A stretch of DNA of 55,719 nucleotides from positions 1-55,719 of IMG/VR virus record IMGVR_UViG_3300042402_000298. One strand, given 5' to 3'. The notes beneath the pieces were generated by a model that had not been told where the DNA came from, did no database searches, and saw only the letters and a program-made list of their open reading frames with translations. Source of the DNA: a virus (Duplodnaviria > Caudoviricetes). A program made the translations under genes and the position numbers. This document shows positions 5,730 through 20,631 of the stretch, piece by piece (within the stretch, counting starts at the first letter, position 1; the number at the start of each line of letters is the position of its first letter).

Positions 5730-5933
5730 TTAGGTGAATAGCTTCTTCAAGAACTCTGCTGCGGCTCCCGGGCCAAGCAGTACCATAATCATCACGCCAT
5801 AGATCAACATCTCAATGCGGATCATGCGCTGGTCGCCCTTCTCTAAGCGCTTCTCGATAGCCTCGTATCGGGCATTTGATAGCGCCTCATGAACTGCGAA
5901 GCGCGTCTCTAAGTCCTTATCCATCTCAAGCAA
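5730..5933 (-). CDS. Small coiled-coil plus TM protein (XhlA/holin-like)
   Basis: HEALSNARYEAIEKRL coiled coil followed by a hydrophobic helix. Confidence 0.6.
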   Translation of the reverse strand: MLEMDKDLETRFAVHEALSNARYEAIEKRLEKGDQRMIRIEMLIYGVMIMVLLGPGAAAEFLKKLFT

Positions 5934-5947
5934 ACCCCCTCACGAAC

Positions 5948-6124
5948 TTACTCTGCGGCATCTTCTTTCTGCTCAGCAATTGGTAGCTGTGGCATTGCCT
6001 GCACCCGGATGTTGTCGATCATTGGCGCCGCTTGATTGAAAGGCAGAGCCCCAAGCAGTGTCAATAAATGGTTAATCTCTTCCAGATTGTATTGCAATGT
6101 AATACGAATGTCTTTGTTTTCCAT
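5948..6124 (-). CDS. 58-aa hypothetical protein (MENKDIRITLQYNLEEINHLLTLLGALPF...), not in ORF track
   Basis: SD AGAGGA 4 nt before ATG; resembles the small ORF at 34149..34298. Confidence 0.7.
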   Translation of the reverse strand: MENKDIRITLQYNLEEINHLLTLLGALPFNQAAPMIDNIRVQAMPQLPIAEQKEDAAE

Positions 6125-6164
6125 GCTGTCCTCTTATAGTTGATTTGACTTCTTGTACCCACCC

Positions 6165-6369
6165 TTGGTGAATCTTGGAGCATAGCAAGCCCTAACCGTA
6201 CAGCACGGGCCCGCTTTCCCACCCTCGGAGCCATCTCCTCGCGTAGCCCCCCAGACTTGATCCACCACCCGGCTCTAGGGTTCACCCACCGTCCCTGCTT
6301 TGGCTTGCTCGTGTAGCAGGGTAGTCCACAGACACCACCGACGTACCGCATGTCTGGGGCAGCAAGCCC
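6165..6369 (-). ncRNA. Candidate ~200-nt pseudoknotted structured RNA in the late-operon leader
   Basis: Multiple complementary segments: 6352-6359/6249-6256 (8 bp), 6315-6321/6293-6299 (7 bp), 6281-6286/6167-6172, 6271-6275/6228-6232, and loop 6302-6309 complementary to both 6361-6369 and 6184-6192. Confidence 0.5.
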
Positions 6370-6472
6370 AAAAAAAATGCCCAGTTAAGGAGGCTTTAGG
6401 CTTGGTTTGCCGCACACAGGGGATTGCTCACTCATCGATCCTGTAGCTTTGACGAAGCCGCCTTAACTGGGC
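6370..6472 (-). ncRNA. P4 CI / P1 C4-like antisense or attenuator RNA ending in a U8 tract
   Basis: Perfect 12-bp inverted repeat GCCCAGTTAAGG 6379-6390/6461-6472; inner stems; loop and bulge complementary to upstream leader; T8 follows on - strand. Confidence 0.5.
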
Positions 6473-6528
6473 GTTCTTGCGCTAGTGAGAGCTTTCTACT
6501 CGGCACCACCCGTTAGTAGATAGCCCCA

Positions 6529-6557
6529 AAGATACTCCAGAAAACTCCAGTATGCAA
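6529..6557 (-). promoter_or_regulatory. Sigma70-like promoter facing the late (terS to tail) operon
   Basis: TTGCAT-17bp-TATCTT on - strand. Confidence 0.55.
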
Positions 6558-6558
6558 G

Positions 6559-6993
6559 GTGTTGGGTTCGATTTGGTCTTCAGCTAGGCAAATGGGAAAG
6601 CCAGAAAACCATCTGCGTCAACATCCTCGAATGCTGGCTTAACACCCAACACGACTGAGGACTGACATCCCTACAGCGCCGAGCTGCCGAGTCGAACGGC
6701 GGCCCCACCACAAACCCGTGAACGCCTTGCGCTAGGTTGCGCAGCCAATCCCCATGCGTGTTGGTAGTCGGTACTCGCTGCGTCTGGGGTAACTCGTCGG
6801 CTTCAGCTCACCGATTTCCGTCCCAGCATCCGCTTTCCCAACTGGTATGGAGACCGACTCTGCTCCGCAGGTTCCAGTCTACGGGGTCGGGGGTAGTGAC
6901 CAGCCGATCTCCATGCCACTTGGCGCTCTACGCAAACGGCTGAGCTGCCGATCCTTGACGCTCATTGTTACGGGATTGCGCTTCCCCAATGAG
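6559..6993 (-). ncRNA. Array of abutting stem-closed structured RNA elements
   Basis: Closing stems 6559-6567/6644-6652, 6646-6653/6757-6764, 6766-6771/6838-6843, 6843-6859/6902-6918, 6961-6967/6987-6993; T-loop and loop-E-like motifs; G-U wobble pattern favours the - strand. Confidence 0.55.
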
Positions 6994-6996
6994 TCG

Positions 6997-10995: not shown

Positions 10996-12339
10996 TCAGT
11001 CAAAACCGCGTGATCGCACTGGCTCTCGCATTGCTGGCGGTTGCCACTTAAATGCCACATTCTCAAACCTAGTTTGATTTCCTATGTAAGTCAACGGAAC
11101 CACGCCCGGCTCGCCCTGTCTTTGCTTGGCAAGAATGACTTCACAAATACCCTTGTCCGGCGTGTCTGAGTTGTAGACTTCATCTCGATACAACATCATC
11201 ACCGTTGAGGCATCCTGCTCTATAGAGCCTGAAGACGACAAGTCAGAGAGAATTGGGCGTTTGTTGTTTCGCTTCTCGCATTCCCTGTTGAGCTGGGCCA
11301 ACAGCAACACAGCGCAATCCAGTTCCTTAGCAAGCGCCAACAGACCCCTTGTGTAGTCGCCAATCTCATACGCCTTGTTCTCAGCTTTACTGCCAGAGAT
11401 AAATGAAAGCTGGTCAATTACCAAAAGATCTAGCCCAGACCTGCGCTTAATGAACCGAGCCTTTGATCGGATTGCAGTCAGGTTCAAGCCTGTTTCGTCA
11501 TCGATCCATAGCTTCAAGCGTTGAGCTTTTTCAAAAGCCGCAGTGAGCCGCGTCCAGTTTTCTTCGTCACCTTCGTTCGGCTTACGAAGCCAAGGAATTG
11601 GAATCTGACCCATCGCCGCGATGTTTCGGTCATTGATCTGGGCTTTCGGCATTTCCATTGACAGAAAGCCTACGCTACCCCATTCGGCTACGTTTCGAGC
11701 CAACGCCAGCCCAAAAGCCGTCTTACCCATCGAAGGTCTGGCTGCCAGCACGTTCAAAGTACCCCGCTCGAAGCCCCCGTCCATACGCAGGTCGAGGTCA
11801 AGGAAGCCGGTGGCGATTGGCTTGATGCTGCCATCAACCCGAGCCTGCAGCAGCTCAACGTAGTTGCTCAAAGACTCACCAACAGTCTGCGGATCAAGAC
11901 TCGCTGCATTCTGCGACAGCCGTTCCAATTTATTCGACAGCCAGTCCGTCACCTCCGGCACAGGCATCTTTGCAGCCATGTCTGTCGCCTCTCGGCAAGC
12001 CGCCATAAACTGACGCTTTTTTGCATATTCGATAACGATGTCTGCATGGACGCGAATAGAGGCCGCTGAAGGCGTTCGATGGGCTAGTTGGTTGAGATAT
12101 ACCAACCCATCGTCGATCTCGTCTCTGAGGCCGTCGTAGGCCGTTATAACGTCACAAATTTTGCCCGAGGTTATCTGCCCGCTGATTTCTTGGAAAATTT
12201 TGCGGTGGTCGCCATGGTAAAAATCTTCGGTTGTCAAGTCAGCAACCTTGTCAAGCGCCGCGTTGGAAACCAGCAGGCAACCAAGAACCGCCTGCTCAGC
12301 CTGCATGGAGAACGTCAGGGGTAGATCATGCGCGTTCAT
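10996..12339 (-). CDS. dnaB: Replicative DNA helicase DnaB-like
   Basis: AEQAVLG N-domain, AARPSMGKT, FLSMEM, VIDQL, AQLNR, SGSIEQDA, KQRQG. Confidence 0.95.
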   Translation of the reverse strand: MNAHDLPLTFSMQAEQAVLGCLLVSNAALDKVADLTTEDFYHGDHRKIFQEISGQITSGKICDVITAYDGLRDEIDDGLVYLNQLAHRTPSAASIRVHADIVIEYAKKRQFMAACREATDMAAKMPVPEVTDWLSNKLERLSQNAASLDPQTVGESLSNYVELLQARVDGSIKPIATGFLDLDLRMDGGFERGTLNVLAARPSMGKTAFGLALARNVAEWGSVGFLSMEMPKAQINDRNIAAMGQIPIPWLRKPNEGDEENWTRLTAAFEKAQRLKLWIDDETGLNLTAIRSKARFIKRRSGLDLLVIDQLSFISGSKAENKAYEIGDYTRGLLALAKELDCAVLLLAQLNRECEKRNNKRPILSDLSSSGSIEQDASTVMMLYRDEVYNSDTPDKGICEVILAKQRQGEPGVVPLTYIGNQTRFENVAFKWQPPAMREPVRSRGFD

Positions 12340-19152: not shown

Positions 19153-19212
19153 AAAAACCCCGAGAGGGAGAATCTCGGGGTAAACATCACTCCCCTGTCG
19201 CTAGGGGTGATG
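19151..19212 (-). terminator. Terminator region at the convergence of the two transcription blocks
   Basis: ACCCCGAGA/TCTCGGGGT hairpin (19157-19181) followed by T7 on - strand; second hairpin 19185-19212. Confidence 0.75.
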
Positions 19213-19215
19213 CAG

Positions 19216-20631
19216 CTACTTTTCCATAACACTAGGTACAGGAGGCAGCATCATCTTGACCGGAAGCATCCCCAGCGCACCAAGGGTGCCGACGCCTTTA
19301 ATTGTCGCGGTCACAGGATTAACCGGTGGCACCATCGACATCGTGTTCATCAGGCCTGAGATACCGTGGACTGCAGCCCCCAATGGGTCTTTGCGGTCAA
19401 ACGCCTCAGTGATGTCATAGAACGCACCAGCACCAGCTAAAGCATTCATCGTGGTCGGGCCAAGTAATGGAATCCGGCTAGGTGCAGCCATCTGGTAGCC
19501 AAACTTAGCCAGCGGGCTGATGTTCGCCTGCATAGGTACGTTCAAACCCCGGCCTACTGCGTTACGGGCTGTGCGCTCCATCCTGCGGAGCTGCTCAAGC
19601 CGTGCGGTGAATTGGGACGCATCCTTACCTAACCGAGTCAGACGGGCTACCTCGGCCTCTACAGAGGCGATCTGAGGCTGCAGAACACTTAGAGCCTCTT
19701 TGGCTACCCTTGCCTGCTCCGCAGCCTGTGCGGCCTCTCTAGCGCCCACAGCAGCCGCCTCTTGCGGGGGAAGCATCAACTGCCCCTGACCGCGACCAGC
19801 CAACTGAAACTGACCGCCGCCAAGCTGCTTAATCTTCTCAAGGCGCTCGAGATCCTGCCTAATTAGGTTCTGTGCCCCTTTGGGGCTGCTTTTGGTCATG
19901 TCCTCAGCCGAGGCGATCAATTGTTCAGGCAATTGATGTTCAGCCCCAGCCATCGCCCGCATCCAATTCGCAGGCGCAGAACCGCCGGGGACTTTCTCAC
20001 CTGAAAGGCGGGTCGGGAAGCCACCAAGGTCACCCAGCTCAGGCACCATACCAGCAGCAGCACGAGCAGCCTCTGCCTCAGACTGCAAGGCACCAAGCTG
20101 AGCCTGCTGGCCTTCGAGAACCTTCGGCATCATCTGTCGAGCCAAGTCGATCAGACCCTTCTCATCTTTGACGCCCATCACATTGACGCCAGCCTCAGAC
20201 AAGACGTTTCGGATCGACCGGGCGTACAGCTCGCGCTGGAGCTTATCAGGGGAGCGGAAGTAGCCCTCGAGCAGACCCTTTACAGCCCCAGCACCCGCAC
20301 CATAGCCAGCCATCGTGGTTGAGCTTGAGCCTGCTGCTTGAGGGGCTGCAATTTCAGGCACCTCACCCGATACAGGCTGGAAAATGCTTTGAGGAGCTTC
20401 AGCTACAGCCTCTTCCATTGGAGCTTCTGCAGGGGCTTCCACAGGCGCAGGAGCGACTTCTACCGCAGGTTCTTCAAGACCAAACTTCTGGCGAATCAAT
20501 GCCTGCGTCTCAGCATCCGCATTTGCGTAGTTCGGGTCTTTGGCTACCTTGCGGGCAAAGATTCGTTGGCGCTCTTCAGGAGACGCCTGCTGCCACTCTT
20601 TGCTTGCGCGAATTTCTGATCCTGTTGGCAT
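19216..20631 (-). CDS. Putative internal virion (ejection) protein
   Basis: Ala/Gly/Gln-rich, helical, C-terminal hydrophobic segments; end of podoviral structural block. Confidence 0.6.
   Translation of the reverse strand: MPTGSEIRASKEWQQASPEERQRIFARKVAKDPNYANADAETQALIRQKFGLEEPAVEVAPAPVEAPAEAPMEEAVAEAPQSIFQPVSGEVPEIAAPQAAGSSSTTMAGYGAGAGAVKGLLEGYFRSPDKLQRELYARSIRNVLSEAGVNVMGVKDEKGLIDLARQMMPKVLEGQQAQLGALQSEAEAARAAAGMVPELGDLGGFPTRLSGEKVPGGSAPANWMRAMAGAEHQLPEQLIASAEDMTKSSPKGAQNLIRQDLERLEKIKQLGGGQFQLAGRGQGQLMLPPQEAAAVGAREAAQAAEQARVAKEALSVLQPQIASVEAEVARLTRLGKDASQFTARLEQLRRMERTARNAVGRGLNVPMQANISPLAKFGYQMAAPSRIPLLGPTTMNALAGAGAFYDITEAFDRKDPLGAAVHGISGLMNTMSMVPPVNPVTATIKGVGTLGALGMLPVKMMLPPVPSVMEK

Follow-up and report, generated by a model that had tools for sequence, protein, structure and literature searches.

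A pseudoknotted non-coding RNA upstream of phage packaging genes: structure, distribution and possible roles

What is encoded by a long stretch without conserved genes lying just ahead of the packaging genes of a tailed phage, and what could it do? The question is raised by the IMG/VR virus record IMGVR_UViG_3300042402_000298 (Duplodnaviria; Caudoviricetes), which was analysed at its whole length of 55,719 bases (completeness estimate 99%) and is called the window below. On its minus strand, 870 nucleotides (nt; 6996-6125) without a conserved open reading frame (ORF) are bounded by an ORF of 83 amino acids (aa) and one of 58 aa; the latter is followed on this strand by a 67-aa ORF, an Sf6-type small terminase (TerS; Pfam E = 2.7e-40) and the large terminase (TerL). 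The 3' end of this ORF-poor stretch (6165-6369) had been flagged by a first-pass annotation as a pseudoknotted RNA.

The region forms the core of an RNA that is non-coding, strand-specific and pseudoknotted and that belongs to a large phage family. The finding is real and more than an oddity of a single locus, and most of the structure first proposed for it is wrong. The conserved core of the structured RNA occupies 6157-6369 on the minus strand and is the 3' part of a ~370-nt module (6557-6157).

Structure of the core RNA

Helices of the core were counted in an alignment of 61 representatives with less than 93% identity, in which hairpins H1 and H2 and helices S1 and S2 were scored (Table 1); the counts for these four helices refer to this alignment. 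Paired combinations fill 92.8% of the core cells, compared with 71.4% in shuffled alignments and 33-48% in controls with slid registers. Compensatory changes on both sides are present in 19 of the 24 core pairs, so that covariation among homologues does exist. The covariation score is 0.529 versus 0.144 in shuffles, none of 500 shuffles being as high. The count repeated on 44 insert-free sequences gives 91.3% of cells paired (71-72% in shuffles) and 17 of 24 pairs with compensatory changes. Nine close relatives, at 86% identity per column, show only four covarying pairs.

All seven pairs of H1 have compensatory changes. The pairing CAGACA/UGUCUG had been listed as an alternative conformation; it is real, and it is hairpin H1 itself. 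The CCCUGCU/AGCAGGG hairpin (H2, 6321-6315 / 6299-6293), proposed from the start, is paired in 94.8% of cells with six of seven pairs compensatory. S1 comprises only 3 base pairs, yet it is paired in 100% of cells and covaries at two of three pairs, one of its positions being occupied by CG in 35 sequences, AU in 11, GC in 11 and UA in 4. S2 is paired in 97.3% of cells and covaries at four of seven pairs. Since S1 and S2 cross, they form an H-type pseudoknot; the RNA is thus pseudoknotted as supposed, through this crossing and not through the helices proposed for it. U-G pairs are frequent (51 of 61 sequences at one core pair, 43 of 61 at another), which fits an RNA of the minus strand and neither a DNA palindrome nor an RNA of the opposite strand.

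The strings quoted by the first-pass annotation are all present on the minus strand where they were placed, including GGGCUUGCU at 6369-6361 and 6192-6184; several of the pairings drawn between them fared worse. The long-range helix CCCCAGAC/GUCUGGGG is paired in 34.8% of cells, and GUCUGGGG pairs with CCCUAGA (6280-6274) instead. The loop AGCAAGCC, which had been suggested to act as a switch between two exclusive partners, is paired with the 5' copy of GGGCUUGCU in 39.5% of cells; with the 3' copy it is paired in 97% of cells in the nine close relatives, but no pair is changed on both sides, and in locus L044 covariation links the 3' copy to a local partner (AGCACAG/CUGUGCU) and not to the loop. 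The data on the two copies do not support such a switch. The crossing helix GGUGAA/UUCACC has its third-position U-A pair in one of nine sequences, the window only. GAGCC/GGCUC is paired in 90.2% of cells, invariant without covariation, and overlaps the covarying S1 and S2.

A covariance model of the family core (R1; 116 positions, 21 pairs) matches the window once with a high score (Table 1), and the next-best match reaches 7.2 bits, which indicates a single copy of the core in the window. When contigs of four sequencing runs were aligned, 6249-6352 proved common to many contigs with differing flanks, 13 of them in one run. Folding of a single sequence gives no signal: the minimum free energy of 6130-6380 is -87.8 kcal/mol versus a shuffle mean of -89.95 (standard deviation 5.13, z = +0.42), a stability equalled or exceeded by 132 of 200 shuffles. 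It is homologues that provide the evidence for structure, not the stability of one sequence.

Table 1. Positions of the features of the module and of selected features in other loci; positions without a locus name are those of the window
Feature	Position	Strand	Description
Whole module, presence/absence polymorphism	6142..6558	-	Alignment to relatives
Promoter-like site	6529..6557	-	TTGCAT (6557-6552), 17 nt, TATCTT (6534-6529); read from sequence
5' domain RNA-1, type 1	6370..6523	-	P1 6519-6496; P2 6477-6455 / 6396-6374; three-way junction; U8 6377-6370
Family-core covariance-model match	6247..6360	-	Model R1, 116.7 bits, E = 1.1e-30
H1 hairpin	6329..6356	-	Stem CAGAC/GUCUG; 18-nt family-invariant loop AUGCGGNACGUCGGUGGU (6351-6334)
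H2 hairpin	6293..6321	-	CCCUGCU/AGCAGGG; conserved 15-nt loop ACACGAGCAAGCCAA
H-type pseudoknot	6249..6291	-	S1 CGG 6291-6289 / CCG 6272-6270; S2 CCCUAGA 6280-6274 / UCUGGGG 6255-6249
3' domain	6157..6248	-	RNAalifold on nine close relatives; support weaker than for the core
CUAC	6246-6243	-	Pairs with GUGG inside word X1
Conserved GGCUCC	6232-6227	-	
Word X1	6225-6218	-	AGGGUGGG
3'-domain hairpin	6215-6205 / 6199-6184	-	AGCGGGCCCGU / ACGGUUAGGGCUUGCU
UUCACC	6172-6167	-	
Word X2	6165-6158	-	AGGGUGGG
Last hairpin	6173-6157	-	AUUCACC-AAG-GGUGGGU
Zinc-ribbon ORF, examples	L054:8010-8156, L055:12495-12728, L084:8686-8940		18 more loci besides

Family distribution and module architecture

A scan of IMG/VR with the 18-nt loop of H1 matched at least 120 viral contigs. 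Together with loci found earlier, the loop motif is present in at least 129 loci (the one in L073 is a chance match) and at least 122 distinct contexts. At least part of the stretch is held by 24 sequencing runs from 22 studies, the stronger holders being mostly labelled lake or freshwater; the carriers of the family are uncultured, mostly freshwater phages.

The RNA could not be assigned to a described family, as the first-pass annotation had also found. Rfam 15 at gathering cut-offs gave no match in the whole window, and at E up to 10 one chance match to a small nucleolar RNA model (E 0.76) in 5900-6900. At E up to 1 no match was obtained in five loci with alternative cassettes (described below) and the type-A member L028, and on ten family loci Rfam matched three tRNAs only. 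The RNA had no blastn match among 50,697 GenBank phage records; in the nearest GenBank phage by TerL (65%, MW202545) the unannotated gap apparently holds ORFs and not this RNA, as judged by eye. Passages of a 2023 catalogue of candidate structured RNAs from IMG/VR (DNAVirus_N) list 14 candidates upstream of a putative large terminase (PMC10690425). The data source is the same, and these passages describe no function or structure for such a family. Full-text searches of the literature found no description of the family; a prior listing in the supplements of that catalogue is possible.

In the module a promoter-like site is followed by a three-way-junction domain closed by a long helix and U8, then by the core and the next gene, with no terminator between the last two. 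The transcript would start near 6523, as read from the promoter-like hexamers. The place of this site is conserved in relatives, where other promoter-like sequences occupy it: TTGAAA-17-TATAGT in L028, and the consensus TTGACA-17-TATAAT/TACAAT in L050 and L052.

For the 5' domain, RNA-1, the RNAalifold prediction consists of a hairpin on the 5' side, the long helix that closes the domain, an inner hairpin and another hairpin that is small and invariant. In alignment A3 (15 distinct sequences, from ~6523 to the U-run) 44 pairs are predicted, 20 of them with compensatory changes; 98.5% of cells are paired versus 89.3% in shuffles (none of 500 as high) and 32-56% in slid registers. The junction strands are invariant even in the divergent L050, L052 and L053. 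AGAA stands on the 5' side of the closing helix and U8 on its 3' side, which makes RNA-1 look like an intrinsic terminator with a structured insert: stem and U8 are conserved and covary, and the place of the loop is taken by a ~60-nt structured insert, the scan tool making no terminator call here. At least three further types of 5' domain occur in the family, each ending in a long helix and a U-run. Across the family 117 of 121 members have a T-run in the 60 nt upstream, at a distance of 8-53 nt (median 18) from the H1 loop.

Motif scans with RNA-1 returned 9 viral loci, 13 metagenome loci and one contig of a metagenome-assembled genome. This contig (L053; CAZRFL010000172.1, 3.2 kb, from a genome labelled uncultured Bacteroidales bacterium) is the only match in 185,579 species genomes and is too short to serve as host evidence. 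Among the metagenome loci the unrelated L048, an A+T-rich contig with an exact match to a 23-nt RNA-1 motif and no other likeness, is probably a chance match or a chimera.

In the 3' domain, the hairpin at 6215-6184 has a multi-base compensatory change in L044. Of the 101 members with both anchors, 98 hold an identical 6-11-nt word in the 18 nt after GGCUCC and again in the 18 nt after YCACC, the two copies lying 60-79 nt apart. Fifty distinct words occur across phages; in a cross-phage control at least 6 nt are shared in 226 of 1944 pairs. In the subgroup of the window the word doubles as the 3' strand of a helix (CUAC/GUGG in the window, CUGUCG/CGGCAG in L060), and, the word being present twice, the 5' strand of this helix has two possible partners. 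A match of the word to the U-run or the linker is seen only for some words, e.g. AAAAGCAA. Two otherwise unrelated contigs repeat the 18-nt motif of the 3' hairpin (6174-6157 in the window), at L029:9613-9630 and L033:33-50 and each time 32 nt from the contig end. The G-rich motifs were also considered as Chi-like, ops-like or anti-Shine-Dalgarno-like; these readings were rejected, as the positions concerned covary as helices or are unconserved.

Comparison of 26 loci encoding relatives of the small terminase shows which parts of the module come and go. L002 (97.8% identical upstream), L005 and L008 are without 6558-6142, position 6559 being joined to 6141 with 6-17 nt between; L003, L004 and L006 are without 6822-6142. 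The module as a whole is therefore accessory, the closest relatives doing without it. In L011, L014 and L026 the likeness is confined to 6664/6522-6362 and gives way to a different non-coding stretch of 276 nt. At least six unrelated downstream stretches, non-coding, G-rich and 200-450 nt long, are found behind the same RNA-1, and L028 and L036 have both flanks in common with different cassettes in between. The alternative cassettes comprise types B (L011, L014, L034), C (L036, L037), D (L035, L045, L053), E (L050) and F (L052). They match neither Rfam nor the type-A model R1; they hold GNRA-type loops and local compensatory changes, e.g. AUGGG/CCCAU versus GUGGG/CCCAC in L035 and L045. The module is accessory and modular, both of its halves being exchanged between phages. 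Direct repeats of GGCUUGC were considered as a mark of the insertion site and dropped as not general across cassette types.

The remainder of the ORF-poor stretch (6559-6996, minus strand) is also non-coding and G-rich and is kept in module-less relatives (listed as L002, L005, L008, L014 and L031); it could represent a further structured element or a control region of the operon itself. Within it, 6595-6664 is common to up to 12 contigs in one run, and 6665-6744 is swapped for 22-39 other letters in other contigs. Some type-A carriers (L031, L030, L043, L046 and L051) have an extra ~45-aa ORF, starting M-D-T-E-Q-R-I-K-H-L, between the RNA and the homologue of the 58-aa ORF.

Promoter-like sites with a score of at least 9/12 occur on the RNA strand within 300 nt upstream in 54 of 113 members, versus 11 of 113 on the opposite strand and 8 of 98 in a downstream control, mostly 120-200 nt before the core. 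The first downstream ORF of at least 90 aa is on the strand of the RNA in 74 of 89 loci, the remaining first ORFs probably being antisense shadow ORFs, and no terminator-like site was found between the RNA and the first long ORF in any of the 89 by a crude script criterion. Relatives of TerS and TerL are co-oriented with the RNA in 36 of 36 and 47 of 47 loci.

The first-pass annotation placed the RNA at the head of a ~42-kb late operon. The RNA is indeed upstream of the packaging genes and co-directional with them, but it is not an obligatory head, the closest relatives with flanks 97.8% identical being without the module. Nor is the location specific, as family members also lie between terS and terL, after terL or at the head of operons of the RusA/NinB type. 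Out of 122 loci, the RNA is upstream of terS in 18, between terS and terL in 1, upstream of terL in 3 and just after terL in 25, and 75 have no terminase within -3 to +3.5 kb. In a cluster of 40 loci the RNA is directly upstream of a conserved 121-aa ORF. Other clusters, by Pfam names, are recombination genes that point leftward (Sak, ERF and YqaJ; 13-21 loci each) and rightward genes for RusA, NinB and YbcO (15-17 loci each; their overlap with the 75 terminase-less loci is uncounted), the RNA heading the latter genes, which face the former.

A small zinc-ribbon ORF (38-85 aa; M-R-x-C-x-C-G-G ... C-x-x-C-G-R-Y-E) directly follows the RNA in 21 of 103 loci. It matches no Pfam family, and its product is a possible partner of the RNA. 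The TerL ORFs of L060, L066, L070, L133, L158, L160 and L171 are ~750 aa long; their alignment to the 479-aa TerL of the window is split into two pieces (~329 and ~152 aa), which suggests an inserted element such as an intein. Genes for tRNA lie near the RNA at L084:8106-8179 (~350 nt upstream of the core) and at L113:1323-1395 and 11225-11297; ARAGORN finds no tRNA or tmRNA gene in the window. The only strong canonical terminator-like site on the minus strand of the window is at 19157-19181 (9-base-pair stem, T7); it is the likely end of the operon, as it lies just beyond the last minus-strand gene (19216..20631).

Candidate functions

The leading, though tentative, reading is that the module would be a cis-acting leader controlling transcription elongation or termination. 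It would act in cis on transcription of the operon that it heads. The 5' domain would serve as a conditional terminator, and the core could bind the elongating polymerase or a phage factor and, like nut or put sites, cause antitermination or anti-pausing. The invariant loops would contact conserved machinery, and the twin phage-specific word could be what a protein encoded by the phage specifically recognises, boxB being the counterpart for N. Cis action is favoured by the position at the head of operons, where put and nut sites lie in lambdoid phages (PMC9378689), together with the strict co-orientation; of the roles suggested by the first-pass annotation (a put-like antiterminator, a ribozyme or a packaging-associated RNA), a put-like one is the best fit to position and orientation. 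A more speculative extension, which is rather doubtful, is a portable, largely RNA-based device consisting of a promoter, a conditional terminator and a polymerase-reprogramming core, with the twin words as a programmable site for a small phage protein, e.g. that of the zinc-ribbon ORF.

Several observations weigh against control of elongation in cis. Terminator-like sites in the window number 16 versus 19.1 in shuffles, 28 versus 21.5 and 16 versus 14.4 in three counts, and this lack of excess leaves no visible need for processive antitermination, Rho-dependent sites being unpredictable. The core comes after the terminator-like helix and therefore cannot rescue that terminator. The promoter-like site of the window would be weak, scoring 7/12, below the scan threshold, and the window has no zinc-ribbon ORF downstream. 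A complementary partner of the repeated word, sought in the module and the loci, showed no consistent place and no enrichment. Core depth in metatranscriptome contigs is 145-205 versus 7-30 in the flanks (two runs); a probable DNA run has the same excess, and many contigs share the core, so this excess reflects sharing among genomes and is no evidence of expression, RNA ends or strand. The closest relatives manage without the module, and the five apparently unrelated cassettes that replace the core behind RNA-1 fit a payload RNA equally.

Such a payload, i.e. a stable RNA acting in trans, expressed from its own promoter and serving in host takeover, anti-defence or an sRNA-like (small RNA-like) role, is a possible but doubtful alternative, with the 5' domain as either a conditional terminator or an sRNA in its own right, of the Hfq type. 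It would account for the RNA's own promoter-like site, its presence or absence among near-identical phages, its varying position in the genome and the swapping of the core for unrelated structured cassettes behind the same 5' domain (L028/L036). The cassettes of L050 and L052 end in their own terminator-like hairpin, followed in L050 by a new promoter-like site, as seen by eye. However, in none of 89 loci is the type-A core followed by a terminator, a search for targets complementary to the variable words found none, and the RNA is co-oriented with TerS, TerL and the first long ORF in the counts given above.

It is improbable that the RNA is a ribozyme, self-cleaving or otherwise processing, by which the leader would be severed from the mRNA of the operon. 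Loops and junctions very highly conserved beside covarying stems are typical of ribozymes, a pseudoknot is present, and several interchangeable structured cassettes occupy one slot; different classes of self-cleaving ribozymes share genomic neighbourhoods. Against it, no Rfam ribozyme (hammerhead, twister, pistol, hatchet and others) was matched even at E up to 10, and no sign of a cleavage site was seen, the sequences aligned being contigs, in which RNA ends do not show.

It is likewise improbable that the module is primarily a selfish mobile non-coding cassette, spreading among phage genomes through homing or recombination and of little use to its carrier, although this would be compatible with the other explanations. 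Precise presence/absence polymorphism, the occurrence of the same core in many unrelated flanks (including the 13 contigs of one run), varying insertion points in the packaging module and the large insertion in the TerL genes of several carriers (two aligned pieces of a ~750-aa ORF) agree with mobility. On the other hand, strong purifying selection on structure and loops implies a function at the RNA level, and no transposase, endonuclease or clear target-site duplication was found at the window junctions.

A packaging element, either a motor RNA like the phi29 pRNA or, at the DNA level, a pac/cos site recognised by the small terminase, is very improbable. It is suggested by the 47 of 122 contexts that adjoin terS or terL, by the repeated G-rich motifs of the GGUGG type and by several contigs that end inside or near the element; contig breaks are, however, expected at a sequence common to many strains. 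The other 75 contexts have no terminase in the range given above, and about 40 contexts belong to recombination/replication regions. G-U pairs and compensatory changes are strand-specific and RNA-like, the cassette type is uncoupled from the TerS type, and Rfam scans of the window matched no RNA family apart from the chance match at E 0.76.

The chance that the core region is a protein-coding gene is negligible: the 96-aa ORF 6061..6351 exists in the window and translated look-alikes cluster in 70 loci, which follows from the conservation of the DNA, but this ORF, whose conservation the first-pass annotation took as a point against an RNA, is not conserved among 109 unique members, has no Pfam family and contains a 2-nt indel in close relatives. 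Whichever strand and frame is taken, at most 38 of the 109 members are open over 150 nt; in the frame that begins at the loop ATG, 55 of them meet a stop within 9 codons and 17 stay open for 66 codons.

Comparison with known systems

Few large structured RNA families of phages are known to our knowledge, and most of them have no assigned function. Whatever the function of the present one, the alignment and the model define a new family that is missed by current genome annotation and that sits at the heads of packaging, structural and replication-side operons. The phi29 pRNA, a model of which is presumably included in Rfam, gave no match in the Rfam scans of the window.

In riboswitches of the HMP-PP/thiS type the aptamer is embedded in a terminator. 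RNA-1 resembles them in its invariant junction bases inside a helix that is directly followed by a U-run; it differs in belonging to a phage leader and not to a metabolic gene, and in having no Rfam match.

In lambda, promoter, leader, terminator and operon follow one another, nut sites consist of boxA and boxB and work with N, and the late pR'-tR' leader works with Q. The module could be compared with these leaders by its identical order, and its combination of a conserved and a phage-specific part recalls boxA and boxB. In contrast to lambda, no N- or Q-like protein is recognised: the first-pass annotation saw no Q-type antiterminator gene, and Pfam and PHROGs annotate none among the ten neighbouring ORFs, a result of limited weight given the diversity of Q families. 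The RNA is also far larger and more structured than nut, and the module is dispensable in close relatives.

According to passages of PMC8191782, conAn2 of Gram-positive conjugative plasmids works with a small protein encoded beside it, and put and EAR are the only other RNA-based antiterminators. The present RNA may be likened to conAn2 and EAR by its place near the start of long operons on mobile elements and, in 21 of 103 loci, by the zinc-ribbon ORF downstream; host range and type of element differ. No relation in sequence or structure to conAn2 or EAR is indicated, as Rfam scans matched no antitermination RNA family. If control of elongation proved true, the RNA would add to this very short list, and its specificity might be engineered through the duplicated, co-varying word; under the more speculative reading of a portable device it would be a further class of RNA antiterminator and the first with an exchangeable specificity code.

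The put RNA of phage HK022 (putL, putR), as described in passages of PMC9378689, is ~70 nt long, with two stem-loops and a short triplex, and needs no dedicated phage antiterminator gene. It makes RNA polymerase resistant to terminators in cis via the zinc-binding domain of beta'. Compared by description, the RNA studied here is larger, with a 114-nt core of two hairpins and an H-type pseudoknot, a 3' domain of ~90 nt and a 5' domain of 150 nt. The two could nevertheless be analogous in their setting: both lie downstream of a promoter (here of promoter-like sites), at the head of an operon and on the strand of its genes, and as with put no dedicated antiterminator gene is recognised near the RNA of the window.

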